A stretch of 64,000 bases of DNA from Psammoneis japonica. Its lineage: Eukaryota. The notes beneath the pieces were generated by a model. That model made no database searches. It was not told the DNA's origin and saw nothing but the letters and a program-made list of their open reading frames with translations. The stretch covers positions 228,979-292,978 of the forward strand of contig QPGO01000008.1 of the NCBI GenBank assembly GCA_008632985.1, given 5' to 3'. The position numbers and the translations under genes were made by a program. Shown here in pieces: positions 20,856-64,000 of this stretch; within the stretch, counting starts at the first letter, position 1, and each line of letters starts with the position of its first letter.

Positions 20856-21983
20856 GAAGAGAAGAAGGCTTGACAACTGCAGAGTGGCATTCTTGGCATG
20901 GTGTGCTCTGGCTGCTGGTCACTCTTTGTTTGTTGTTGCTCCTCTCGCTTTTGGAAATGGTGCGCCATGCACAGCATGACAAAAAGGATGATGTCATGAC
21001 TCAAACAGACAAGGGCCCAAAGCTCAAAGCTTCACAAGGATGATCAAGAAAAAAATGCCAAGACAGAAAAGTTGGGCATGTTGCACGTCTGCAATGTTCT
21101 TGCTCTCAACAAGAAGATGCGTGATTCACAAGAATCAAAATTTTCACAGACCTGTGACTGCACTCTAAGCAGGTGTCACATTTTTTTTTCAAAAACCAAC
21201 CTGGGTTGTCACTTCCACCATTTTGAACAATGTTCTGATGCTGGCTCATTTGCAGTCACAAATCTGGCTGCATTGCCAAGTTCTTGTGCTTGCCTCAACC
21301 TTGTCACACCACACATGACAATTTGACAATTCCAACTTCAACCTGGATCGCAGCATGGGGGTCAATTCAGCTGTGCACTTCATTCAACACCACTTTGAAG
21401 CTGTCAATTGACAATGAACATGCTGCAAACAGTTGTTGGGGTGCCAAGTCTCATCTGGGCTGAGGTCAACATGGTGGCAGTTTGATTTTCTGTTTTTGTT
21501 TTGGTCCACGATGCTTGTGCACTGCACTCTGTTTTGGCTGTGGAAGTGGATTTCTGCCAGTGAGCACCAAATCTTGTCTGCTGTCTGTTGCAGAAGATTG
21601 CAGAGAGTTGCTTTTGGATGCCATGCTTGTCCAAGTGCTGGTGCCAATGTGCTTGCTGAACAGAAGGATGAGAAGTGTTCTCCATGCACCCAACTCCAGG
21701 ACCCAGACTGTGTGGGCGGCAGTTGCAACCAAGAGAAAACATTTTTGCCACAAAGGATCACTCTCAGTGCACAACTCATGCAGCAGCAGGACAGCTTGAC
21801 AAGGCTGCAAGCCTTCAAAAATTGTGTGGCATGCAATTGAAGAAGCTCAAACTTGATTTCTGAATCACATCCCAGCCAGCTCTTCCATGAGATCCATTCT
21901 TGCTTGCTGAACTTTAGTTCAGAATGAAATGGAGGGTGGCTTGAACATTCATTGCTCAGCAACCAAACCTTTGAATGAGCAAC

Positions 21984-24390
21984 TCTGGAGTTTGGAAATT
22001 GAAATCTGCTGCTGTTGGGAATGGGCCACAATGCCACAAGACCAACCTTGCAATGCTCAGCCATGGCTCTCAATGCATCATCTGGGGTCCACCAGATGCT
22101 CTGCCAATGTCCTCAGCTTGCTTTTGTCTGATTCAGTTGGCTGGTGCTGTTGTGGGGTCACTTCATTCTGGAATTTGGAAGTTCAAGTCTGTTGCTGTTG
22201 GAAACAATGTGACATGGGGACACAGCACTTCAACATCCTCAACCTTGCAATGCTCAACAACAGCTCACAAAGTCTTGCCTGAAAGATGCCAAAGACCGCC
22301 AATGCCCTCTGCCAGCAGTCATCTGGTTGGTTGGTCCATCATGGGATCTCTGGAGTCAGGAAAGTCAAGGCTGCTGCTGTGGGGGACAAGGTGACATCAT
22401 GGGGCCACAACATCACAAGATCAACCATGCAATGCTCAGCCTCAGCAGCTCTTAAAGTGTCGCCAGGGGACCACTGGAGACCAGCAGTGTGCTCTGCTGG
22501 CAGCAGTTGGGTTGGTTGGCACTGTCGTGGGAATCTTGCACTCTGGAGTTGGGAAGTCACGTCTCTGCTGCTGTTGGGGACAAGGTGACAGGTGCCCACA
22601 ATGCCACAAGATGCCCCTTGCAGTGCCCCGACACAGTTCTTTGAGTGTCCCCTGTGGGGTCCACCCAAGATCAGCAGTGAGCTCTGCTGGCAGCCCAGTT
22701 CTTGGGTTGGTTGGCACTGTCATGGGATCCTCTTTGTTGCACTCTGGAGCTGGAAAAGTCAAGTCTGCTGCTGCTGTTGGGGACAAGGTGACATGAAGAA
22801 ACAGTGCCACAAGATCAACCTTTTGGTGCTCAACCACAGTTCTTAAAGTCACACATGGGGCCTGCCAGACACCGCCAGTGCCCTCAACCTGCAGCAGTTG
22901 TCAGGTCAGTTGGCATCATCATGACAGAATCCTTTCACTCTGGGGTTTGGAAATTCAAGTGTGCTGACCACAAGATTGGCTTGCAATGCTCAACCCCAGC
23001 TCTCCAAGTGTCCTCTGAGGTCCACCACACACAGCCAGTGTCCTTTGCTTGCTGTTGTCTGGTTGGTTGGCACTGTCATGGGGTTCTTTCAATCTAGAGT
23101 TTTGAAGCTCATGTCTGTTGCTGTTGGGGACAAGGTGACATGGGGGCACAACACCACAGGATCAACCCTTTTTTGCCTGGCCACAACAGCTCTTGTTGGA
23201 GAGTCCCCTGAAGTCAACCAGAGACCACCAATGTGCTCTGTTGGCAGTTGTCAGGTTGGCTGGGGCACTGTCATGGGATCCTTTCAATTTTCTGGAGTTT
23301 GGAAGCTCATGTCTGCTGCTGCTGCTGGGGACAAGGTGACATGGGGGGCCAACACCACAAGATCAACAACTTTGCAATGCCCAGAGCCACAGCTCTTGTG
23401 GCATCCCTTGGAGTCAACCAAAGACCACCAGTGTGCTCTGTTGGCAGCTGTTGGGTTGGCTGGTGCTCTCATGGGATCCTTTCAATCTGGAGTTTGGAAG
23501 TTCATGTGTCTGCTGCTGATGGAGACAAGGTGACATGGGGCCACAACACCACAAGATCAACCTTGCAATGCCCAGCTGCAGTTCTTGGAGTGTCCCCAGC
23601 AGCCCACCAGAGATCACCAGTGTGCTCTGCAGACAGTTGTTGGGGGGTGTTTGGTGCTGTCATGGGGTCCTTTCCATCTGGAGATTGGAAGTTCATGTCT
23701 GCTGCCATTGGGGATGAGGTGACATGGGGGCACAACACCACAAGATCAACTTTTTCCAAAGACCACTGGTGGGCTCTGTTGGCAGTTGTTGGGGGGTGTT
23801 TGGTGCTGTCATGGGATCCTGCACTTTGAAGTTGGGAAAGTCAAGTCTGCTGCTGTTGGGGACAAGGTGACATGGGGCCACAATGTTGCAAGATCAACCT
23901 TGCAATGCCCAACGCTCAACCACACTTCTCAAAGTGTTGCCTGGGGTCTGCCAGACACCGCCAGTGCCCTCAGCTTGCTGTTGTCTGGTGGGTTGGCGCA
24001 CTGTCATGGGGTCCCCATTCAATCTGGAGTTTGGAAGCTCATGTCTGCTGCTGTTGGGGACAATGTGACATGGGGCCACAACACCACAAGATCAACCTTG
24101 CAATGCCCAGCTGCACTTTTTGGAGTGTCCCCAGCAGTCTGCCAGAGATCACCAGTGTGCTCTGTTGGCATTTGTTGGGTTGGCTGGCACTGTCATGGGT
24201 TCCTTTCAACATGGAATTTGGAAGTTCATGTTTGCTGCTGTTGGGAACAAGGTGACATGGGGGCACAACACCACAGTGTCCTGTCACTCTGGAGTTTTTT
24301 GGAGAAGCTCATGACATTTGCTGCTGCTGAGGACAAGATGACATGGGGCCACAACATCAACCCAAGATCAATCTTGCAACTCCCAACAAA
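21984..24390. repeat. Diverged tandem repeat, ~190-200 bp unit, ~13 copies
   Basis: The core ctggagtttggaag-tcatgtctgctgctgttggggacaaggtgacatggggccacaacaccacaagatcaaccttgcaatgc recurs. Anchors lie near 22381, 22577, 22780, 23126, 23327, 23521, 23711, 23858, 24056 and 24244. Confidence 0.9.
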
Positions 24391-26909
24391 ACAGCTCTGA
24401 AATTTTTGCCTGCATGGCCTGCCAGGCACTGCCAGTCATGTTCTCAGCTTGTGCAACTGTTGGGTTGTTTGGCACCACTGTGCTTGTGTGGGTTGGCTGC
24501 AAAGATCAGCTGCAAAAGCAGAAGCTGCACCTGATGCAACAAACAAACAAACTTTGTGGACCAGCACAAACATGAAAGTTTCATTCTTGGCATGAGCCAA
24601 AAAAGATCATGAAAACTGAGACACAAATGTTGTTCAAAAACAGATGCGCTGCATCTGACTGGAGCAATGTTCAACATCCAGCTGCTGAACAAACAAGAGC
24701 TCACAACTGAAATGCATCAGGAATGAACAAATGCCAACAAAAGGATGCATCTTCAAGCCAATTCAAACAACCTGAAAATCACATGCAAATGAGTGCAACA
24801 AAATGTTTTTCAAATGATGGCATCTCTTCCAGAATGACACACAGGCAATGATCACCTGGCCAGCTGACTCAGCTCCATGGCAAAAGGCACATGAGCCATT
24901 GCCACCATGCAAACAATGCAAAAATGCAGGATTGATCCAAGCAGCATGCAAACAATGACAACATTGCAGGAAGGCACCCACAACGCCAAGGAATCTGCAC
25001 ACACCAACAAAGAAACACTTCAGGACATGGGAGCAGGCAGCTTGCCACAAACAACAACAAAGTGTCACTTTTCTTTTGAATTTTTTTGTTTTTTGAAACT
25101 CAGACACAAGTTGGCAAAAATGGCCAAAGATGAGAAAGAAAGTGCTGCTGCATTGAACACAGCAGGTGAGCAAAAACAGCAGCATTGTGCCACACTTGCC
25201 AAAAAACATGCCAAAATGACAATTTCTCTGCTGTCTTCCACCAGGGATTTTGCTTTCACATCTTGCAATGAAAAGCTGTCACAAAAGTCAACTCTCTTTG
25301 AAACATGAAAGACTGGAGCATGGTGCCATGCCAGCACAGCCAAGAACACCACCAAGGTGCAAGACAGACTGCAAGAGACAATGGGGCAGACATTGCAATG
25401 GAGTGACAGCACCAAAGAACAAGAGCAACAGAGGAGCATGCACCAAACATCGGACATTGCCAGGGCAGAAAGCAACATTGTCAGAAACCAAGAGTTGCAA
25501 AATGCAAGCCAGCTGACAAATGAACAACTCAAATTGTTGGAATGCTCCAGCCAAGGAATGACAACAACAACAACAAATTGGATTGACTTGGGCATGTGCG
25601 CACAGAAATGAACCATGTTTCATTTGTTGCAGTCTCTTGCTTTGCTGTCTTGTTGGTTGAGACAGCTGATGCTCTGACATTTGCAGCTGTTTTGTGCTGC
25701 AAACAAGTTCAAAACAAATCTTGTCAAAAGCCCACACACTTGCTGTGAGACCAAATTTCCTTGAGTCTGGTGGTTTCCTGTTTTGCCAACTCAGTTGATT
25801 GTTCAAATTGATTTGTTCACTCTGAACAAGCATTTGACAAAAACACAGGCTTCTCATTGAGCAAACTTCAACTCTGAGCAAGAGCAGCAGCTGCACTTTC
25901 CAGATGCAGAGGAGTCACATGTTGTTTTCCACTGACCAGGTGCACACAAGTGTCTCAACAACTCTGGCTTTGCAGTGAGCCTGGGCCACCCAAATCTGCC
26001 CAAGCTGCTGTGCCATGTCTGTTGTCAATGACATCAGAGCACTTGCAAGTTGAGTGTCAGAAAACCAAAGAGAAAGAAGAAACTCTTGAAATGACCTGAT
26101 GGATGGCTGCACCAAGCAATTTTAATTGTTGTGCCCAGATTCATTGGAAGGGCTTTGGTGCCAATTGGTTGTTGTCAGCCCTCAGGGGTGCAATGTGAAG
26201 TTGAGCACTGTGTCTGTTTGTTTTGTTGCATCAAAGGGCTCTTGTTGTTGCCCTGTCAAATCACATTTGGACATGTTGGGAGTGTCTCCCACAGCCACTG
26301 GTGTCCAAATCAAACAAGCTTGCTGGAACTTTGTGCACATGTGATTTGGAATGCAACAGCTCTGCACAAGGCAATCTAGTCATCCTTTGTGTTGATTTCA
26401 TCCTTGTGGCAAACCTGCTTCCTCTGCTTTCATGGATCTGCATTCCATGTTTGTTGATGGATTTTTCTGACCTTGCAATGTCATGATTGGCATGGTCATG
26501 CCAGCATGCTGCAATTTTTTGGTGCCACAAGAAACCCTTTTGTAGATGACTCCAAAAGACAAGCACTTGGTGGAAGCATGGAAAAATCCAGAAACTGGTT
26601 CATGGGAACAGCCGGCTCATTGGGATGTCACTTGCCAAACAACAAAGACAAAGCTTTTCATGACACCCAGAGAGCAAGTTTGACCGTGTAATTACAACTT
26701 GCACGTCATTCGCACTGTTACGCAACAAAGTTAGTGAAGCTTATTGAGGGTGCCAGTTCCAGTGCGCGTTGTAGTTGGAGTGTGAAAGTGCTGCGTCCGT
26801 AGGAGAGAGCCATCCGGATTTCAACTCCGGCAGCAATGGTAAAGAACATGGACACTAGTCTAATGGTGAAACATTCTATAAAAAGGATTGCTACGCAAGA
26901 TTTCCACAA

Positions 26910-34505: not shown

Positions 34506-35512
34506 TGCTATTTTCGAAAGTCCTTTTCTGGAGAGCGACCGTAGCGTACTGTATGCCGTATGGTACTTCTATGACAGCAATTGCGTCATGGTCGGACGAT
34601 ATAGCGACTGCCGCCGCGTCGTGATGCGGATGATGATGGGCTGATGGTGAGGTGAGAGCGAGAGGCAAGAAATCGTGGAGCTTGGAGCTCGTAATGACGT
34701 CACAGGTTCGCAGATAGCACACAAAATGTGACAGTGGAAATGCCGTTGGTTTTCCCGCCACATTTTCAAAAAAATTTGAAACGGCGAACCCGGGAAAAGT
34801 GAATTCAGAATCACTTTGCTAATTGTTGCACGAAGCACACAAAAATCGTCATTTGACTTTTTGAAACACGTCGTCGTCGCGATTGCCATGGTTGCTTCAA
34901 TTCTGTGCTCAAGGTGAGTCGATCGTCTCGTTTTCGTTGCGCATTGGATCTGCTGGAGTTGAGTCATTGAATGTCATCCGCACACGACTGCCATGCAGAC
35001 CTGAAGGCTTGGGTCCTTGATGGTTTTCCTCTGTGCTGTGTTTGATTGCGCACATCTTTGGAAGTCGGTTCGAGGTGAAATGACGATTGCCTGTCAAAGC
35101 AGTCCGTGGTGTTCCGACGGAGATGCACCACGATTGCCAGCAAACTCGCTTCTTGCGTGTGCGCTGAATGCTTGTAAACATCCAATGTGGCAGTGACCTG
35201 GTGCCAACCAATGCACTTTTTAGTGCAACAGTTGTTCAAGCAGGAGCCATGTGAGGGCCAGCCTCTGCTTTCTTTCTTTTGAATGCACGCTGAACGCCTG
35301 CAGACGTCGTGGACTGGGACGGTGTGTTTGACAACCCCGAAGGGCAGCCTTTTTCGTGAAGGTTGTAAGGTGGTTCAGACCGCTTGAGTTGCTTGTTGAG
35401 CATCTCACATCTGATCCTCCGCAGGTTTGACACTCCTGTGGGTCGCCGGGCCGTTGTGTCAGCCATGTTCTCCATGTCCCACAGCGTTTGAAGATCTGCT
35501 TTGTTGCGTTTG

Positions 35513-35559
35513 TCTCAGTGGATCGTGTCATTCCCACTTAGATGCAGGGATCTCTGTCA
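35513..35559 (+). repeat. 5' LTR (47 bp)
   Basis: 45/47 identical to 41353-41399 and followed directly by the PBS. Confidence 0.85.
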
Positions 35560-35880
35560 GGTTGTGAGCAACGCTTGCACAGACGTGCAAGCAAGGCTCC
35601 TCCACCACTGCCGACAACACATTTTCCTCTCGTTTCGTTGTCGACGACACCGGCAGAGAGCGCTCACATCGTAAACTTTGCCACTCCATCGATGACAATG
35701 ACGTCTGCGTCTCTGATGCTGATTCACGCCATTGCTGTTTGTTTTTGCAGCTGCTTGCATGGGCATCAGTGCACCTTCTACGTGCACTGCGATCTCCTTG
35801 GGTGCACGCCACAGAGATCCGACACATGCTGCCGCTGCGTGGTGGAACGACATTGATTTTTATTTTCATTGTCGCTCACC

Positions 35881-38800
35881 ATGGCCCCTGCTAACAGCAC
35901 CCGTTCGAAAACGGCATCCTCTTGGCGGGACACTCTGTCGTCACTCCAGGCCGCTGTGTCACCCATGTCGGCTGACGACTCCCCTGTCTCTCCTCCTCCG
36001 GCTGAGACTGACCCTGCTTCTGCTGGTGATGCAACGGCAGAGGATGCTTCGGTGCCTCACGATGCGCCCACGGCAGAGGACGCAATCGAGGCGGAAGCCA
36101 CCATTGCGGTGAATGTCACTGCTCCGGAAGCTGATGCGAGCCCTGAACAGACGGAAACCCCTGCCTCTCTCTCAGAACAGCCGCCGCTGCCAGTGCTCCC
36201 AACCCTGCCTCCACGCTTGCCGCCTGCCCCACCTCCTGAATGGCCTCACACGCCTCCTGGCAATCCCCTGCAGCCTGAGGAACCTCCCAACCCTCCACAC
36301 TCTCCTCCGACATCGCCTCAGGCTCTTCTCAAAATGCACGAGAGTCATCTTAACTTGGCTGTTGCCCGCATCCACGAATGTAAACGGGCACTGGATGTCT
36401 CTGCGGAAGAAGTTTCCAGGCTCAAGCGGGAGCTGCACGAAATCCGTTTGGTCACGAACAATCACGCCTCGGCCATCACGGACCTCAAACATGCTCGTGA
36501 TTTCAACCTCCTCCGCACCAAGGTTCAGACCCAAATGAAAGCAACTGCAGATGAAGCCATCGCTTTGGCTGGCAACGCGGCCAACGAAGCTTTGGCAACA
36601 CGTGACACCCAATTCCTGGAAGCTCTCGACAAGATGATTGTTCCGGTTTACGAAGCTGCGGAAGCAACGACACTTGAACGCATCCGCACCACATCGACGA
36701 ATGCACAAAACAACATGGCGTCTTTTGTGGCGGACCAAACCAGCCGGCTGGAATCGGCTGCCTCGGAAGCTGTCCATGCTGTGGGTGACCACGTCGGTGC
36801 CACCCGTAAAAAGTTCCAGGCTCGGCTTAAGCACAATGTTAAACTGCAAACGGATGACCTGGATGTCACCCTTGCCAGATTGGACTCCACCAAGAACGCC
36901 ACACAGCAGATTGTTCAGAATGGCTTTGCTGTGGCCAACACAATGGCGGCCCTCTTGGAAGACTGTGAAAACGCTGCTGCACCCTCTTCTCCGGACACCT
37001 CGTCTTCTCCGGCTGCAGGCCTCCAACATGTCACGAAGGACCACCTGGAGGACATGCTGAGAGATGACTTGGACGGCCTCCAGGCTCAACTGACCCTCCA
37101 ACAGGACACCGCTCAAGTGCACGCCGGTGAGATCAAACACGCCAATGATGCATCTGAAGCTGCTCGGCGTGCGGCAGCTGGGGTTCAGAAGGAACTGGGC
37201 AAATGTCGATCGGAGTTGTCGAATCTGACAGCGAACTTATCACCCGCCACCCCAGATCCTGGCCCAATGGTCACGGAACGCATTGCTTCGTCATTGGACA
37301 ACATCGCTGATCATCTCGTGACTTCGCCTGATCCCATGATCTCTCTGGCACCCCCGGTCGTTGGCACCAATCATGCTGCTACGAGCAAACCGGCCTCCTC
37401 TTCGGAACAATGCTGCAACTCCAAAACCTTCCGTGAGACCCCCGGCCCCTTTCTCCATTCCATGGAACCAAACGACATCGCTCTGTTTCTCAAAGGTGTG
37501 TGTGCACGGTGCACCCTGGCCCATGTTCCCATCCGGGATCCGGACACTCTCACTCGCGCACAGTCCGACTTCTGTAACCCGATGTTAGTGAGTGCGTCCC
37601 ATCGTCAATGGCATGCGATTGAGATGTGTTCCAAATTGGTGCAGGATGATGCACTTCCGGATCACCAACTGTGTGACGGTTGGAAAAAGACATGCGCCGC
37701 ATCGATGGACAGTTTTGCGATCCTCAATCACCTCGCGGCTCTTGGACTTCCACCCCTGACGGGCAAAATGGTTGATGCCCCATCCTGGAAAGGTGACCTT
37801 TGTGAGCTTGTGGTGGAATTCACCATTTGCTTCACTGCCGTGGAAGCCTCACACGCCAAGACGGATCCCACTGCACCCCCGGCATGCTCGGAATGCCAGA
37901 AGTCTCTCAAATTGCTGGAGGCAACACCGGCTGGCACGCATGAACCGGTGCTCCTTCTCAAACACCGTCTGAATGAGATTGGGGACCCCGCTCCCCTGCC
38001 CCATGATCTCCACCTGGTCTCTCTCATCACACAGATTGACCCCAGGCTTGCTGCGAATGCCGACCCGACGGGATCTTTGAGTGCATTCTGCAGCCGACCG
38101 TCTCGCGGCCGCCAGCCCATTTCGCTGGATCGACAGCACACCCCATTCCAGCCCCGGAAGGGTCTCATTTGTGATGCATGCGGAGCGCACGGCCACAGTC
38201 ACACAACTGCACCAACCTGGCCCGCACTGCTTTGCTGTTGGATTTCATCAAGGCAAACACGGAGAAAGTTAAGTCCATTGTTTCTAAATGGCATTCTCAC
38301 AACCAACGCCGCAAGGACTCACCACGCCCGACTGCCCATCCATTTGTGGCGGATGTCTCTCATGACATTGCCAACCATGTGATGGATGAAACGGCCTCGG
38401 ACCTCCCATTTGCATCGGATGCACCTCCGGATTTTCTGCAAGCCGGCCGCATGCTCCATCATTGTGCGGTGAACGGCTTGCCAATGGCTGCGGGGCAGAT
38501 GATCGGGACGATTTGTCGTCTCTGCCTTCCGCTGACTCTCCGATCCCTCCTTCAATCTGTCGCTCATTCGCCTCCAGCATCCCCTGCTTTGACCAGCTAC
38601 CGGACTGGAGCCATTCAGGCCGCCCTCCCGATCTCGCCAGCACAGATTCGGATTCTACGATGTCGCGCTCGATGCCGGACGATGACTCGCTCTCCCTGTT
38701 GGACGAGTCATGGGCTGCGGCGGTCGAGGATTTTGCCGAAGATCCTCAGGCTGCTCTGCACTGCTTTGCCACAAAATTTGAGTCAATGGAGTCCGTCACT

Positions 38801-39595
38801 CCTCCCACCATTGCGCTTTCCACAGCTCTGGCACTGGAACATGAAACCGCGTTGCTGCCCACCTTTCACTGTGCCAGTGTTGGGAACCTTGCTCCGGACT
38901 CTCCAGTGGAAGCATCAGGGCAGACGGACACTGGTGCCAATTGCAGTGCCACATCTCAACGACACCTGCTTGCCAACTGCCGCCGCTTTGCGAATCCCAA
39001 ACCTGTGAGCACAGCTTCTGCACCCGACACCACCCTCATGGCACTGGGAGCAGGCATGTGCACCATCCGTGACATGGACAATCGCGAGCATGACATTCCG
39101 ATGTTCTGCTGCCCTGGGCTGGGTGAAACCCTGATTTCGCCTGATCATCTGTGCAGAGCATCCAAAGAACAACACAGCCAATGCCGTGCTTTGCACTTTC
39201 AGGATTCTGGTCACGGCACACTCACGGTGACTGATCGGGGCCGTTCCATCATCCGGTCTTTTCCGATGGTGCACACTGACGGCTTGTGGTTCATGCCACG
39301 GCTCTGCCCCGATGCACCACTGGCTGACGGACACACAGAACTGGAGGGTGCAATGCGCACGTTGCGGATGCATTCACCGACTTTGAGAGACCTCGGATGT
39401 GAGTTCGATGTGCCCGATCCTCCTGGCAAATACGAACAGCTTGATTTGGATGCCCCATCATCCCCTGTGCCCATGGACCCTGTCCCTGAGCATCCCAGCA
39501 TCAGCGAGGACCCATCCGATGTTCCCACACCCCACTTGTCCTCCCTTCAACGCACTCTCCAGGGTCACCCTGAATCTCCCCATTTGTGGAGCATG
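35881..39595 (+). pseudogene. Copia gag (zinc knuckle), aspartic protease and start of the RT remnant
   Basis: CDACGAHGH..C near 38170, DTGAN near 38930 and LQGHPESPHLW near 39560. Frameshifted, with one Tyr in the 837-aa ORF. Confidence 0.8.
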
Positions 39596-40042
39596 TGCAG
39601 CATGCATGCAGACAAAAGGTTGTTTTTGTCACGCCCTTTGTGACATTTAAAGGCTGTGACACGTCGCCGTGATGCATTGGCTCTTGTCAGCAGCTGTGTG
39701 TTGCACTCCTCCCCATGCATCACGCGTCCGTGCGGCTCTTTACTAACGTGCACTGACACTGCACGGTTTTGGCGGAACAGTGTGGGTGCGTGCGAAGGAA
39801 CACACAGAACTGCACAGAGTTTTGCGCGTTCGACAGTGATCAACATTGCTGCAGACAACTCCCACTCAGGGTTTCGAACCCCTGGCCTCCTGCCCAATGG
39901 TTGCGATGAACCACTCCGCTAAGAATTCATAATGCAGCATGCATGCAGACAAAAGGTTGTTTTTGTCACGCCCTTTGTGACATTTAAAGGCTGCAACACG
40001 TCGCCGTGATGCACCAACTCTTGTTGGCAGCTGTGTGTTGCA
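39596..40042 (-). mobile_element. TRIM-like miniature LTR element nested in the Copia RT
   Basis: 110-bp TG...CA direct repeats at 39596-39705 and 39933-40042, TSD CATG and a minus-strand PPT ggggaggag at 39706-39714. Removing it restores the RT frame LWSMHVDKII. Confidence 0.85.
39858..39925 (-). ncRNA. tRNA-derived module (Pol III A box and B box) inside the TRIM; not an intact tRNA
   Basis: The minus strand reads TAGCGGAGTGGTTCATCGC (D-arm/A box) and CAGGGGTTCGAAACCCTG (T-arm/B box). The anticodon arm is short and the acceptor stem does not pair. Confidence 0.65.
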
Positions 40043-40046
40043 CATG

Positions 40047-41340
40047 CATGTGGACAAGATCATCCATGAACACCTCCATCTTGCCCCGACCACCCACGAA
40101 CCATGCATCTGCAGCGGTGCAGTGAACGGTGAAGAGGTGCCATTTCTGCGTCAAGTCGATGATTTCGCCATCCATTGCAATGGACTCGGACGCCACATGT
40201 CAACACATGTGCGACATTGTGGATGACCATGTCACCGGTGGCAAGATCAAACGTCAGGGCTTGCTCACCCTGTTTCTTGGTCATGATGTGGAACAGACAA
40301 AAGACTGCATCCGCTGCACAGCACCTCCTGCGTGAAGCGGATCTTGGCCAACCATGCTTTCCTGACTGACGACAACCTCGGCCCGCCTCCCGCCATCCCA
40401 ATGCCCGGCGATGCCTCCTGCTCCAAATCCCTCGATGAGGCTCCCACTCCGACTGACTCCAAGGCACCCAAGACCCTTCAACAACAACAGGGTTTCTCTT
40501 GCCGGAAGGCAGTCGGTGAATTGATGTGGGCCATGGTCACCACCCTCGTGGATCTCAGCTGCTCGATCACCAAGCTGAGTCAGCTCAGCTCTAATCCTGG
40601 ACAACTGCACTGTGAAGGCGTGGAGCATTCTCTCCGGCACCTCAAGCATCACCCCGATTTCGGACTTACATGCTGGCATCAACAACCTGACACGACACTC
40701 CCCCATGCTCCTCCTCCACCTCCGATGACTGCACCCCACGACCGAGTGCTGCTGCCCCCTCAGGCTTCATCTCCTGCCAAGCTCACAGGCTACAAGGACT
40801 CTGATTGGGCTGCCGACATCCGACACCGCCACTCGATTGCCGGCATTGCATTTCTCCTCGCGGGAGCTGCAACTGCATGGAAGACCAGAGTGCAACCGAC
40901 TGTGTCAACCTCTTCATTGGAAGCAGAGTTTGTTGCTGCATCAGACGCCGGCAAAATGGCACTTTGTCTCCGGTCTGTCATGGATGAACTGTCGGTCCCC
41001 CAGATGCAAGCCATGTCAGCATGCGAAGACAATGATGCATCCCGCAAGATGGCCACCGCAAGCCAACCCACACGCCGCACCCACCACATTGACATCCACC
41101 ATTTTGCTCTTCAAGACTGGGTCAAATGCGACTTAGTTCGACTGGATCGCATTGACACATCAGCCAATTGCAGCGACATGCTCACCAAGAATGTGGCGTG
41201 CATCTTGTTTTTCCACCATTTGGATGCATTGAGTGGACGTCACCATCCCCTCCATGTGCTGGATGGCAGTGACAACACACCACTGCACTGTTCACCAGAA
41301 GAACAGTGCACCCAGACTCACAGGGGTCATGATTCTCCCA
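40047..41340 (+). pseudogene. Copia reverse transcriptase C-terminal half plus RNase H
   Basis: PTTHEPC, FLRQVDDFAI, GELMWAMVT, DSDWA, SSLEAEFVA, EDN, HIDI and SDMLTK motifs. Confidence 0.9.
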
Positions 41341-41352
41341 GTGTGGGGGGGG

Positions 41353-41399
41353 TCTCAGTGGATCGTGTCATTCCTGCTTAGATGCAGGGATCTCTGTCA
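41353..41399 (+). repeat. 3' LTR (47 bp)
   Basis: Follows the PPT and is followed by the TSD GTTTG. Confidence 0.85.
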
Positions 41400-42541
41400 G
41401 TTTGTGATTGTGACCGTCTTGCTGAGCCACACTTCACAACTCACACTTTTTTTCAGATTTTGATTTCTGTTTTGACAGATGATTGTGCATTGCAAGCTGT
41501 GAGAAAGAAGAGCTGCATGTTTGCAAGGGCATTCCACTGATGGTTCGGTTGCAACTTTGGCAGGATGCCTGGTGTGATGCTCTCGTCCCTTTTCGAACAC
41601 ATCACATCTGCATGCAGTCTCAACATTGTCATTCATCCAAGCCATCTGAATCTCCAAATGACATTCATCCTCCCTGTCAAAATCTTGTTTGCCCACAAGC
41701 ACAAGAATCAGGACACAAGGTTTTGTTGTGCATCGAGTTTCCGTGCATTGTTGTCCTGGCAGTGACAACCAAGACACAAGTCAGTCTGCCGGAACTCTCG
41801 TTGTGGCACTCAAGCTGTTTTGAGCAGAAAGAGTTGAAGAATGATGCAATGCTTTGACATTTCAACAGTCTTTGTTGTTGCGGTGGAATGGCACCTGTGG
41901 CCTCCAACATGCCGGGTGCGGGTCTGCATTGCCAGTCATTCTGGTCATGGCTTGTGTCATGCAACCGCAGCGCTTTGTCAATTTCACCAAGGCACAGCTG
42001 AACAAGCACTCTGAGATTCCGTCATCCATGTTGTTGAAAGATTGTTTGTTGAGACAAAGAGACTCATCTGCATGCAAGTCCAGCAAGTGCAAACATCTTC
42101 AGAACAAGAAAGCTGTCACGGCTTTGATTCTCTGTTGCGATGACAATCAAGACATGGCGGGGCTACGTCTCTATCTTCAGGCCATCGAATGGGTGGGACT
42201 CAAGTGGATGGTTGGTCGAACCAATGGCAAGATGTGCCAAGGTCCGAGCACATCATTGAGTGTTGTTTGGAAAGCGTTGCTGGGGAAAGAACCCACCATC
42301 TGAAAAGCATCCAATGCTCCAATGTCAGATGCTCTTAAATGGCACCGCTGCTCTGGTTTCTCACACTCTGGGATCTTGAGTTGAGCAAAACTTCCTCCAA
42401 GCTTGAAGTCGACGATGGCAAGAGAAGGAATCTTTGACCTCTGCGCACCAGCCAACAGAAAGGTCTGCCAAGCATCATTCACTCAAGTCATTTGGGTTTC
42501 TCGAGAGCATGAATTGCGTCAACATGAATCTCCCACAAGTT

Positions 42542-42825
42542 CATGATGCCGAAAGCACGTCTGCTTTCAATCTTCTTTTGATGCAGGCATCTCTGACCCT
42601 TGGCGGTTGTTGCGCTTGATGTGTTCCCCGAGAAACGTCTCTCTCACAACACTCCAACAAACGAGGCAATGGAACATGATGCTGAAAGCACGTCTAACTT
42701 CAATCTTCATCAAATCCAAGAAGGAGACAACCTTCTTATGATGCAGGTGTCTCTGATGCTTGGCGGTTGTTGTGCTTGACATTTTCCCGAGAAACATGTC
42801 TCTCACGACACACCTGCAAACGAGA
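42542..42825. repeat. Two-copy tandem duplication (~125-150 bp)
   Basis: catgatgc.gaaagcacgtct...atgcagg..tctctga..cttggcggttgttg.gcttga...gagaaac occurs twice. Confidence 0.75.
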
Positions 42826-44227
42826 GCCTTGGCAGCTGTTCCAGTTGAAACAGCCCCTCGAGCGTCACATGTGAACGCCACCCATTCGCTCAATCACGAT
42901 TCATGTGCAGTGGTTCTGCAGTGCACACAGTTGAACCGAGTGCACTCTCCAAGACACAGCATTTGCTTCAATCAGTTTTCAGCACTCGCATTCTGACCTT
43001 GTGTGCCCTTCAAGTGATGGAGCAACAAGATTGCTTTCCTTGTCCGCAGCGGGATCGGTTTGCGTTCACATCAATCCTCAAGTTTGCCATGAGAACCTGC
43101 ATCAGTCCTGGTCTGCCAGAGTCTGTCTGATGCTCCAGGTTCCAAGACACTGTGAAGGCGTGACTGTCATTGCCTCTCCACGTGCAATGCCTGCCCAAGA
43201 TCATGTGTTTTTCTTTGGCCGTCAATCTTTGACCTTCAATCATGCACTCCAAGCAAGTGCATCAGCGATGACATCAGCTTGCAAGCCTGTCAGAAACCAG
43301 GCACTGACAACCGCAGATGTGATGCTGCAGTCTTGTCCCGCCCTCAAGCATGCGAGCAAAGCCGCACTCTTGCAGCAACAGCAATGACAATGCGAGCCAT
43401 TCAGAAACTCGAAGACTGGGCCACAGTTGAAGCTCGCCCATCCTTGCAATGGCATTGCTCAAAATTCAGAGACAATCATTTCAAGCCAAGCACAACAGCT
43501 GTGTGTCATTTCAAGCCAGTGCACAAGTCACGTTGGCCGCGCTTCACAGGAAGTTTCCTGAATGGGACGCGCCAAGCTTCCGCCAGCAGCGTGCCAAGTT
43601 GAGTTGGACTGGGAAAAGCATCCTGTCTTGCGACCAATTGTGTTGCCATGAATCTTGCATCGACCTTGCTCCCATGTGATTGACAGATTCTAAAATGGCC
43701 AAGCTCTGTCGTCAGCAACGCATCGTTGGCAACAGACTGAGTCGCTGCGCAGGTGTCAATGACAACTCTTTTTCAAGCGCTTCTTTGCAGTCACTTCTCA
43801 AGGGTTGAATGGCACCAACCGAATGTTCTTTTAGAGGATTGCCGAGTGACTGCTCAGCCCAAACCACAGCACAGATTTGCGCTCCTCGCTCCGTCTCGGC
43901 TTCCGGTGCACAGCCCTACACGCTTACTTACCGGCACCGGTTTAAGGATGGAAGACTTTATTCCCGCCCACTTTTTCAAAATTTGATTTCTCTTCATTCT
44001 CCTTGCACTTGTATACAAAAATAAGTAATGAACATTGTTCGGATTTGTATGTTTCCTTTCGATCTCAACGGATCCGTTGCGCAATTATCGTCCTTCGTAA
44101 ATGCAAGAGAAATATACAGGAAATGGCGATGATGTTTTCACACACTTTTTGTTCACAATTCATTCTCATTCTCATCTATTGAAGAAGGAGCTAGGCCACT
44201 GAAGATGCCATCAGCATTTACAGCAAC

Positions 44228-61209: not shown

Positions 61210-64000
61210 TGCCGGTGCGCAACAATGCAACAATGGTGCGGCAATGATGATGTGGTAGACCAGAAGGTCGTCGTGAAAAGGAACCATGCAATGTTGAGCT
61301 CAGTTCTGACAAAGAAGCACTGGCGGCAGTGGATCTGTTTGTACCCCGAACAACTGCAGTTGGAACTGGGGTCGACACTTCTGTCGGACTTGAAACTGGT
61401 TTTTTTTTTTTGCTGTCCACCTCCTCTGATCTGTGCTCCAGCACTTCTTCAAAATGGCATGCTGGGTGCCACACTGCTGGTGAGGAACATGGCAGAAAGC
61501 TGCATTGCCAAGCAGCACTGCAGCCACAATGTCATTGAAATTCCAACAGCTTCAACTGCACAGTGTGATCTCTGCCAAGTGGCTGAGAGTTCATTTCAGC
61601 AAAAGCCATTGCTTGCTTCGGCTTGCATGATGTGTGTTGCTGCTTGTGTTTGATTTTTGCAGCCAGCTGTTTTTCACAATGTGCTGCACAGAAGCATTGT
61701 CATCTCCTCTGCTTCTTTGTCAAGAGCATCTTGGGGGGCTGAGGTGAGCCTCTTGTGCATTGCAAGCAATGGTTTGAGTTCAGACATCATGCACACAAAA
61801 GAGCAGAGAAAAGGAGGTTTTTAGCTGAAAAAATTCAGAGTTGCAGGAGGAGGCACAAAGAAGCCAGCTGCGTCATCCAAATTGGGGCAACACACTGAGT
61901 TGAGTGTTGCACGTTGTGGCAGGGCACTGATGACAAATGCAGGCCAGCTTCAGAGTGTGCAATGATCATTGTGGTGGTTTCAGCACCAGCGCGAGTGTGC
62001 CAGCAGGAGGAAGCAGGCAGTGAGAGACTTGGCCAGCCTCTGTGCTTCTCAGAGAGGACCTTGCTCATCTCAGAATCACACCACAGTGCTGTCTTCCAAC
62101 CTTGGGTGTTGGCGCTTTTTGCACCCAAGCCTCTCCACAATTTTGGCATTTGCTGACATTTCACAGCCAACACATCATCCTTTGCTGTTCTTGCCTCAAA
62201 CCTGGAGCCTGAAGAAGCAGTGAGAGGCGCAAGCCAGCCCAAAACAAAGAGATCCAGTGCTGAGGATCTGCACAATCTTGTCATTGGCCCGCACTTGTTC
62301 TTTGATGAGCAAGAGCTGCCCTCTTTATGACTCAAATGATCAAGCCAACTTGAAAAGATTGTTGCGAATTTCAGCCCTGAGCCCATTTTTTGAGACCTCA
62401 GCACTGACCAGTTCAGGACATCTTGCAAAGTTGCCCTTGCCAAGCAAAGTGTCAATGTCACAAGTGTGCTGATGTTGTGTGCAAGACCATGTGATGACAC
62501 CTTGCAGGCCCATGGCAGTTGGCCTGAGCACCTTTTCTGCCATTGTGTGGTCTTGAAACAACAAAAGAAGAAGATTTTGCCCTGGCAAACTCAGCTCACT
62601 TTCCATGTGTGTCAGTGCCATGCTGCTCATGTGGAAATGTGTGTGGAAGCATCTCTCCAAAAATGTTGTCATGCAGGTGTCCAAGAATGGTGCACAGAAA
62701 GAATGCAGAGAGGAAATGAGCACATTTGGGGGCCCTGCTCCTCTTCCAGCACAAAACTCACATTTTGTGTGCAGAAATGCTGGCCTCTTGTGTGGTGCTG
62801 CAATGACTTGATGTGACAACACACAAAGCAGCTTGCCTTTTGAGTGATGGCAAGGCAGGATGACAATGCAGCAATGACACAAGAAACAGAGCAGCAGCAG
62901 TGGCAACTGGGTGAGTTGTGGCACTCAAAAGTAACCTCATGTTTGGGACAAATTTGTCCTCAAGAGCTATCTTCTTGTGTGCAAAGGCAGGTGCTGCAAC
63001 AGATTTGTGAACTCAAGAGAATTTGTTCACGCAAACCCAAATGCATTGTTTGAGCAACAGTTGTCAACTGTGGTCTCATCCAGATTTGTGCACATGCTCA
63101 TTGTTTTAACAAAACACTCTGTGGCTCTCTCGCACAAATGGTTTGGTGTGGCAGGAACAACATCTGCAGTTTTTTGACAAAAAGTGCTGGTGGCAACAGC
63201 TCCAACATCTGTTTGTGCTCCAAGCATCAGCTTTGGAGCTGGGGTTGGCACTTCTGTGGAACTGGGGTTGGCGCTTTTTTGTCTGACATGAAATGGTTTT
63301 TTTGCTGTCCATCTCTGCTCTCTGCTCCCCACTTTTTCAAAGAGGCGCCACCCATGGGTGAGCAGGAACAAAGCAGAAAGCTGCACTTTCTAAGCAGCAT
63401 TGGAGCCATGTTGCCAAAGAAGTGTCCAAGCCAACAGTTTCAACTGCACTGTCATCTCTGCCAAGCAAGCTCATTTGCTTGAGCAAAAGCCAATGTTTTG
63501 AGTTTGCATGAGTGCTGCTTTTCACAACATGAGCTCTGTGCACTGCATGCCAGCATCATCTCCTCTGCTTCTTTGTCAAGAGCATGTTGGAAATGGAGAT
63601 CAGTCTTGTGCATTGTGGATGTGATGGCTCAAGTGCAGACATTGTGCACTTAAGAGCAGAAAAAAGTTTTGAAGTTCAACAGATTCAGGGTTGCAAATGG
63701 CAACAACAAAGATGAAGAAACAGCTCACTGAAACACAAAGAAGTCAACCACACCAGAGTTGGAACAACACCCAGAATTGAGTGCTGCACACTCTGACAGC
63801 GCACTGATGACAAATGCAAACCAACTTCAGAGTGTGCAATGATTGTCATGGCTTCAGTGAATGCCAGCAGTGAGAGACTTTGCCAGTCTCTGGAATGTGC
63901 TCCAAGGGAACAACTCGCAGTGGTGGCTGCAGACACGGCAAGAGAAAAATGCCACACCTGGCTCACTGCTGAGCCTTGGTGACCTTTTTCCCGCAGCTTT
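61210..64000. repeat. TpA/CpG-depleted repeat block 3 with a diverged ~1.9-kb direct duplication; continues beyond the window
   Basis: About 61380-62050 is similar to about 63280-63890, for example catctcctctgcttctttgtcaagagcat in both. Only about 7 TA after 61350. Confidence 0.75.

Follow-up and report, generated by a model that had tools for sequence, protein, structure and literature searches.

Loss of TA dinucleotides from transposons of Psammoneis japonica points to mutation of chromosomal DNA after insertion

Retroelements of Psammoneis japonica integrate with ordinary TA steps and later lose nearly all of them. In copies of a TRIM family and in the Copia element that hosts one of them, each TA is changed once, becoming TG where A>G falls on the top strand and CA where it falls on the bottom strand, and the changes are near saturation. 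The process is restricted to repeat-rich domains, with genes spared, and it acted in successive time layers, on the host domain, then on the Copia element, and then on the TRIM. We are highly confident that this process is real and that it is neither CpG decay nor editing before integration. So far, TA-erasing mutation had been reported only in an unrelated alga, Bigelowiella natans, in a 2026 preprint (Mettrop et al., bioRxiv 10.64898/2026.01.13.699255).

The analysis started from a stretch of 64,000 nucleotides (the window; G000:C7:228979-292978) within the 91-Mb assembly. The top named relatives of a peptidase in the window are from diatoms (Seminavis, Fragilaria, Mayamaea, and Fistulifera), with 59-62% identity. 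No RNA data set is listed as containing this stretch.

Elements and the ancestral state of LTR differences

The TRIM is nested inside the Copia element. It has the characters of a TRIM: 447 bp of noncoding DNA with 110-bp direct terminal repeats (39596..39705 and 39933..40042), a target site duplication (TSD), and a purine tract. From this tract, a putative polypurine tract adjoining the LTR at 39706..39716, the element appears to lie on the minus strand, which would make 39596..39705 its 3' LTR and 39933..40042 its 5' LTR. The TSD is an exact 4-bp CATG (left, 39592..39595; right, 40043-40046). On the minus strand, at 39870..39921, the interior holds motif matches resembling the A box (39911-39921) and the B box (39870-39880) of tRNA-type Pol III promoters, and their spacing is tRNA-like. 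A search of the interior with Rfam and ARAGORN for a tRNA or Rfam identity gave no match. By eye, the putative primer-binding site of the TRIM resembles that of the Copia element.

A short invariant TRIM motif matches 240 places in the genome (100 of them listed). We aligned 110 loci, made up of the 30 nearest to the window copy and a further 80 drawn from the motif matches by contig order, and excluded 15 (coverage <0.95, identity <0.875, or tandem/nested), which left 95 copies. No allelic or duplicated insertions were found among these, as none share an insertion site. An exact 4-bp TSD is present in 84 of the 95, and the TSDs of the family show a C-N-N-G bias.

The original prediction held that the paired LTRs of each element differ by TA or TTAA steps resolved separately in the two copies, and conceded that a CG or CCGG ancestor might underlie these sites. 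Its reading of the sequence was accurate. The TRIM repeats differ at exactly 8 positions and keep four CpGs (LTR positions 37, 67, 70, and 73) intact in both, and the sole difference between the Copia LTRs is CA at 35535-6 versus TG at 41375-6. We ran the check that it had proposed, namely, to collect other family copies and determine the ancestral base pair. Over 190 TRIM LTRs, the first discordant site (39657..39658, TG, versus 39994-5, CA) reads CA in 135, TG in 33, TA in 19, and CG in 0, and the third (39688..39689, CA, versus 40025-6, TG) reads CA in 97, TG in 88, TA in 5, and CG in 0. The second (39677..39680, TTGG, versus 40014-17, CCAA) reads TTGA in 92, TTGG in 54, TCAA in 15, CCAA in 10, TTAA in 4, and CCGG in 0. 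A CG/CCGG consensus, which would have refuted the prediction, is absent (0/190 LTRs). The ancestral states, TA, TTAA, and TA, respectively, are seen directly in the young copies L264, L262, L266, and L269, and column tallies of the 95 copies agree with them.

Copy L264 (G000:C9:31254-31704) was found by a search with a young copy in which 15 loci were examined. It has an exact TSD, 34 of 35 TA columns, and all 23 CG columns intact, and both of its LTRs read TA, TTAA, and TA at the three discordant sites. The two LTRs differ at one base only (TA versus CA). Its flanks are already erased, with 3 and 1 TA per kb. L264 can be regarded as a natural time-zero marker, a near-pristine insertion within a fully TA-erased domain. 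Four other copies (L262, L263, L266, and L269) retain 24-30 of the 35 TA columns. Compared with L264, the window TRIM shows 36 differences, comprising 28 changes of TA to TG or CA, 4 other A>G/T>C changes, 1 CpG decay, and 3 others.

The alignment columns of the 95 copies fall into three clean classes. Genuine TG/CA columns are near-invariant (typically 93-95/95). The 23 CG columns read CG in 1923 of 2176 cells (88%), and in individual columns 64-93 of the 95 copies are still CG. The 35 TG/CA-variable columns (3300 cells) hold TA in 392 cells, TG in 1607, CA in 1242, CG in 31, and something else in 28, so that 2880 of the 2908 changed cells (99%) are TG, CA, or CG. LTR site 6 and position 39751 were considered as source-lineage variants, with no TA in the first 95 copies, but were rejected as such since younger copies have TA there. 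At 39920-39922, the window copy keeps a TA that is lost in 90/95 copies; a neighboring T>A change gave it a resistant pyrimidine-TA-purine context.

The Copia element lies on the plus strand, with 47-bp LTRs at 35513..35559 (5') and 41353..41399 (3') and the TSD GTTTG at 35508-35512 and 41400-41404. A G-rich tract (plus strand, ~41340-41352) adjoins the 3' LTR. The internal region upstream of the TRIM (plus strand, 35857..39595) was identified by alignment to L070 and other family copies, and its open reading frames have no Pfam match; by the same alignment, the window Copia is without ~2.1 kb of family internal sequence near 39556. A plus-strand reverse transcriptase/RNase H remnant at 40350..41240 has 61 homologues, some with RVT_2. 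At the discordant LTR site (35535-6/41375-6), TA is retained in the 3' LTR of the family copy L070/L061, and the L070 LTR near genic DNA retains more TA than its partner. At 11 Tyr-rich columns (56 homologues), the window Copia reads Cys in 6, His in 2, and Tyr, Glu, and Thr in 1 each, with both Tyr>Cys and Tyr>His within one frame.

Timing, rates, and sequence context of the changes

In the 84 TRIM copies with an exact TSD, the median number of differences between the two LTRs is 11 (range, 1-18). These differences are concentrated beyond chance, since 593 of 852 are transitions in TA columns, which hold 20% of the cells. At the 752 sites resolved in both LTRs of these copies, 254 are discordant versus 282 expected, as the proposed independent resolution of each LTR on either strand predicts. 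TG and CA are mixed in every copy, and the per-copy TG share (0.40-0.80) has an SD of 0.079 versus 0.080 in a simulation with independent sites. Editing of a transcript or of a single cDNA strand would yield one polarity and matching LTRs. The mixed polarity within each copy and the near-independence of LTR pairs thus agree with the earlier argument against RNA editing before reverse transcription, and they place the mutation on chromosomal DNA, on both strands, after insertion. Matching LTR sites agree slightly more often than they would if resolved independently (r = 0.09), and a minority of copies may stem from already mutated templates or from gene conversion. As this excess is small, most copies would come from TA-intact templates, which would fit a defensive effect.

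Rates estimated from the 84 LTR pairs were 1.0 hits per base for TA (1.6 without one resistant TTTAAA site), 0.068 for CpG, 0.0026 for non-CpG G/C transitions, 0.0015 for transversions, and 0.020 for non-TA A/T transitions. The suggestion of a fast, targeted process is well supported, as TA changes ~15-23 times faster than CpG decays and 700-1100 times faster than transversions accumulate; these are relative rates only, and owing to saturation the ratios are lower bounds. Two statements made of the window pair do not extend to the family. The pair does lack background substitutions, but only 7 of the 84 pairs differ solely at TA columns or adjacent A/T. Likewise, its CpGs are intact, but family-wide the CpG columns decay (12%, with 88% kept). 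All four CpGs are intact in both LTRs of 35 of the 84 pairs, so their state in the window pair is unremarkable.

Outside TA, A>G changes occur at 0.017-0.020 per base, mostly adjoining TA or before T, and AA steps not adjoining TA hardly change (AAA, 0.004; AAG, 0.001). The base after the A also has an influence, TAY being hit ~3 times faster than TAR in two independent estimates. From strand choice, the relative values by base after A are 1.54 for C, 1 for T, 0.40 for A, and 0.36 for G. From flank survival, apparent TA survival in 215 flanks is 0.196, 0.033, and 0.0064 for steps with two, one, and no purine-followed strands, respectively, which is additive on a log scale. TATA is resolved on one strand in 144 of 181 cases versus 45% expected. 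At 39678, a hit on TA is accompanied by a change of the following A in 38 of 76 LTRs, versus 1 of 19 LTRs without a hit; a second count of co-mutated adjacent A at this TTAA site gave 20/84 versus 0/11. Co-mutation of the following A is rare at most other TAA sites. The reading of TTGG and CCAA as resolved forms of TTAA is therefore correct as to the ancestor and needs revision as to the step, because the second base lies outside the TA and is an adjacent A co-mutated on the same strand. Such same-strand co-mutation explains TTGG versus CCAA.

At distances of 4 bp and more, we found no strand coordination, with residual correlations within 0.04 of zero (except 0.09 at matching LTR sites), and neighboring hits in young copies are on the same strand in 35 cases and on opposite strands in 41. 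Sites 3 bp apart are anticorrelated (-0.19). Copies that lost more TA showed a weak tendency to have lost more CG as well (Spearman 0.34). To the eye, hits in 11 young copies were strikingly patchy along the sequence, which was rejected as not significant, the observed value being attained in 116 of 1899 margin-preserving shuffles. Four young copies (L141, L094, L102, and L098) have a fully mutated right LTR end and a largely intact left one, and L269 shows the opposite; overall, this pattern is nonsignificant.

Domains and target sites

Genic DNA has a TpA observed/expected ratio (o/e) of ~0.6. Three blocks of the window (~20.6-26.7, 34.8-43.8, and 61.4-64 kb) have values of 0.00-0.15 with raised TG/CA, and CG is mostly gone too in the first and last of these and far less so in the middle one. 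The middle block (34821..43830; TpA o/e, 0.03-0.15) contains a flanking repeat, the Copia element, the TRIM, and an old low-copy repeat. The stretches 21000-26000 and 62000-64000 look like older domains, where CG and TA are both lost (o/e <0.15 each), and 22000-24400 is a degenerate tandem array with units of ~190 bp.

The flanks of TRIM copies have a mean of 2.95 TA per kb versus ~43 in genic DNA. Of the 80 loci picked by motif, 76 carry no more than 6 TA per 450 bp on each side (one flank is empty). None of the 84 exact TSDs contains TA, versus 12 expected from positional frequencies (~7 after genic depletion). Among the 11 nonidentical TSD pairs, at most 1 resembles a TG/CA discordance. TA-free, concordant TSDs indicate that the target DNA was erased before these insertions.

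The right flank belongs to the old low-copy repeat, relatives of which keep TA when they lie in TA-normal DNA. Of the TA steps in two such relatives, 38 of 53 (L293) and 33 of 44 (L294) read TG/CA in the window; 2 of those in L293 are kept. No long open reading frame was seen in the right flank, and the surrounding erased DNA shows no sign of coding or LTR structure. On these sequence comparisons, location seems to matter more than being repeated. The relatives are only 74-78% identical to the window, a distance at which a homology trigger is compatible. Extra copies of C5 DNA methyltransferases (L171-L173, L177, and L180; contigs C301, C297, and C28) lie inside TA-erased domains, several with stops, while at least 6 intact ones lie elsewhere in the genome.

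Mechanism, alternatives, and relation to known systems

Ordinary 5-methylcytosine decay from an ancestral CG or CCGG would leave identical end products, and CpGs do decay in this genome, in 12% of CG cells in the family and almost totally in the older zones. We regard it as practically eliminated for the discordant sites, given that CG (sites 1 and 3) and CCGG (site 2) occur in 0/190 LTRs, young copies read TA/TTAA, true CG columns remain CG in 64-93 of 95 copies, and conserved Tyr codons are changed. Strand-specific miscalling of modified TpA bases in the assembly would likewise produce reciprocal transitions. Read run X1 contains 0.77 of the words sampled from 35000-43800, and run X2 contains little. 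X1 contigs at a depth of 45-65 match erased stretches with 0 mismatches over 1573 and 255 bp, 1 over 199 bp, and 3 over 1350 bp; they show both states (~55%) at 39751-2, as among assembly copies; and their A>G/T>C places (215) and C>T/G>A places (245) are about balanced. The X1 library is off record and possibly the assembly's source sample, and the listed pieces do not span the TRIM discordant sites. Because TA-erased DNA adjoining the element recurs in the read contigs, TSD pairs agree and are free of TA, and L264 retains TA within an erased domain, a base-calling artifact is very improbable. We give equally little credence to GC-biased gene conversion among repeats. Its AT-to-GC direction is right, and non-TA A/T transitions are ~8 times as frequent as G/C transitions; such conversion has no dinucleotide specificity, however, whereas AA and AT are undepleted here, and it needs donors with G/C alleles, yet TG and CA arise independently in each copy. 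RNA or cDNA editing of the ADAR or APOBEC type before integration, fixed by reverse transcription, is scarcely more credible. In its favor, both elements are of the retroelement type, two ADAR/ADAT1-family genes and one APOBEC-fold gene are present, and LTR concordance is slightly in excess, but in addition to the mixed polarity and near-independence of LTR pairs, the near-intact L264 and the erasure of nearby DNA without coding or LTR signs speak against it.

Two further alternatives concern the chemistry of the change. A lesion on thymine, or on a premarked base, might be responsible, either because T in TpA carries a modification that makes it pair with G or because adenine is first methylated and then deaminated. 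TA is self-complementary, so that T>C and A>G on opposite strands leave identical traces. No positive evidence for such a lesion was found, and a search of the genome for Tet/JBP gave no match, a result that leaves their absence unproven; a search for MT-A70 gave no match either and is noninformative, as the controls behaved likewise. We consider this route unlikely. Similarly unlikely, and perhaps slightly more so, is error-prone synthesis of the polymerase eta type, which would place A>G at WA motifs in recurrent rounds of repair of silent, methylated DNA. Polymerase eta prefers TA over AA and makes tandem substitutions, as well as many transversions. The preference and the same-strand tandem hits are similar here, TA and CG losses per copy are weakly correlated, and the APOBEC-fold gene could initiate such repair. 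On the other hand, 99% of changes in TA columns are TG, CA, or CG, AA remote from TA hardly changes, non-CpG C>T does not exceed background, and strand coordination is absent beyond 2-3 bp, whereas repair patches should leave long tracts.

The best explanation, which we think probable, includes a DNA adenine deaminase acting in silent chromatin. A host enzyme would deaminate adenine in DNA to hypoxanthine, which would be read as G at replication. It would act within very short opened patches and would be targeted by silent, probably CG-methylated, chromatin and not by repeat pairing, and the outcome would be the disabling of mobile elements.

Three kinds of protein in this genome are candidates for this enzyme: ADAT2, a second ADAR/ADAT1 paralogue, and an APOBEC-fold protein. 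The ADAT2 orthologue (L036) carries the asparagine used as a criterion by Mettrop et al., which is also present in mouse, yeast, and human ADAT2. Amphioxus ADAT2, in the account available (PMC10354150), prefers GAA and TCG, not TA. The two ADAR/ADAT1-family genes are an ADAT1-like gene on contig C40 and L288 (G000:C79, ~344200-345900), the second deaminase of this family, which has intact motifs and relatives in many diatoms. ADARs can edit dA within DNA/RNA hybrids, according to the accessible part of PMC5389660.

The AID/APOBEC family is known for cytosine deamination. The gene of this fold (L290; G000:C2, ~247000-248000, minus strand) has intact catalytic motifs, and its predicted structure (pLDDT 73) matches APOBEC3 and AID. 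It belongs to a small, unnamed family (19 representatives at E values up to 0.001, ~10 of them close), for which our literature search found no diatom description. A further gene (L164; G000:C79:87318-88790, minus strand) encodes a deaminase fused to a 2OG-Fe(II) oxygenase, probably of nucleobase metabolism. The genome also has at least 6 intact C5 methyltransferase frames, one of which (L174) is linked to a chromodomain, and in the part of PMC9998398 available, some RID-related diatom DNMT4s are reported with such a link. Iyer et al. (2011) describe stramenopile deaminases fused to Tudor, and the accessible part of their article mentions no diatom DNA mutator (PMC3239186).

A natural, self-targeting DNA adenine deaminase, if true, would matter for genome evolution and for base-editing tools. 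The 240-copy TRIM family provides a dated series, from fresh to fully erased, and a fingerprint (TAY preference and same-strand tandem hits) to which every candidate enzyme must conform. Genomes of this kind badly distort LTR-pair dating and the annotation of repeats. The trait is perhaps patchy among organisms, as 0 of 80 metagenomic Copia relatives have a TpA o/e of <0.25 and full erasure occurs in none, in a sample that favors unmutated elements (one of the two search patterns required tyrosine, and the best-scoring loci were kept). One distant Copia on a metagenome contig (L223) has a TpA o/e of 0.28, almost no TAT, retained CG, and an open frame with tyrosines, perhaps as a result of limited exposure to a similar mutator in another organism, or of adaptation to one. 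Our literature search found no description of TA erasure in a diatom, with most subscription papers beyond its reach.

In fungi, repeat-induced point mutation (RIP) is C>T mainly at CpA, occurs in strand-coordinated runs, is triggered by duplication, and needs a RID/DNMT4-type methyltransferase; the process here differs from it in chemistry and strand pattern. As in RIP of ascomycetes, there is transition-only hypermutation of chromosomal transposon DNA that spares unique genes. RIP makes TA from CA/TG; the chemistry and direction here are the opposite, genuine CA/TG columns are near-invariant, and long same-strand runs are absent. Diatoms do have RID-related DNMT4 enzymes (PMC9998398, in part). 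APOBEC and ADAR editing share with our process a deaminase-type, context-dependent hypermutation of retroelements (PMC4866542 and PMC5389660, in the parts available); unlike APOBEC editing, which targets C while the element is being reverse-transcribed and leaves a single polarity in each copy, A:T pairs are changed here after integration in both polarities. CpG decay of methylated transposons, as reported in part for diatom DNMT5a (PMC9998398), leaves the same TG/CA products in the same domains and is a slower second process here, one that starts from CG and runs 15-23 times slower in these LTRs.

The closest parallel is the TpA hypermutation of integrated NCLDV and virophage DNA in B. natans (10.64898/2026.01.13.699255, from the part of the preprint available). 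There, 230 of 231 mutations in two viral inserts were A>G/T>C, all at TpA, ~1000-fold above background; TE-type domains were enriched among TpA-poor coding sequences; activity was limited to some lines; and an adenosine deaminase (ADAT2) was proposed as a candidate. As in that alga, TpA is changed to TpG/CpA here, on either strand, in chromosomal DNA, locally, and in foreign or silent DNA. The changes are almost exclusively A>G/T>C (32 of the 36 differences from L264) and are confined largely to TpA (1.0-1.6 versus 0.020 hits per base at other A/T), and the local excess, which spares genes, is of similar size (700-1100 times transversions, as a relative measure only). B. natans is a rhizarian with two viral regions and partial depletion (Rho TpA, 0.45), whereas the transposon domains here are near saturation (0.03-0.15). 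The preprint reports de novo rates and ours are accumulated changes only; its main text names no diatom, stramenopile, LTR, or sequence context and thus gives no flanking-base rule, tandem hits, or LTR-pair dating. We tentatively suggest, with rather less than even confidence, that one dedicated defense is common to diatoms and chlorarachniophytes, in which a DNA adenine deaminase guided by chromatin, a natural adenine base editor, wipes TA from silenced mobile DNA, that it is saturating here and halts the spread of mutated copies, and that its enzyme is maybe the second ADAR-family paralogue or the APOBEC-fold protein. Relative to B. natans, what is new here is a second major lineage, in which the changes are aimed at transposons, approach saturation, prefer TAY, and include same-strand tandem hits.
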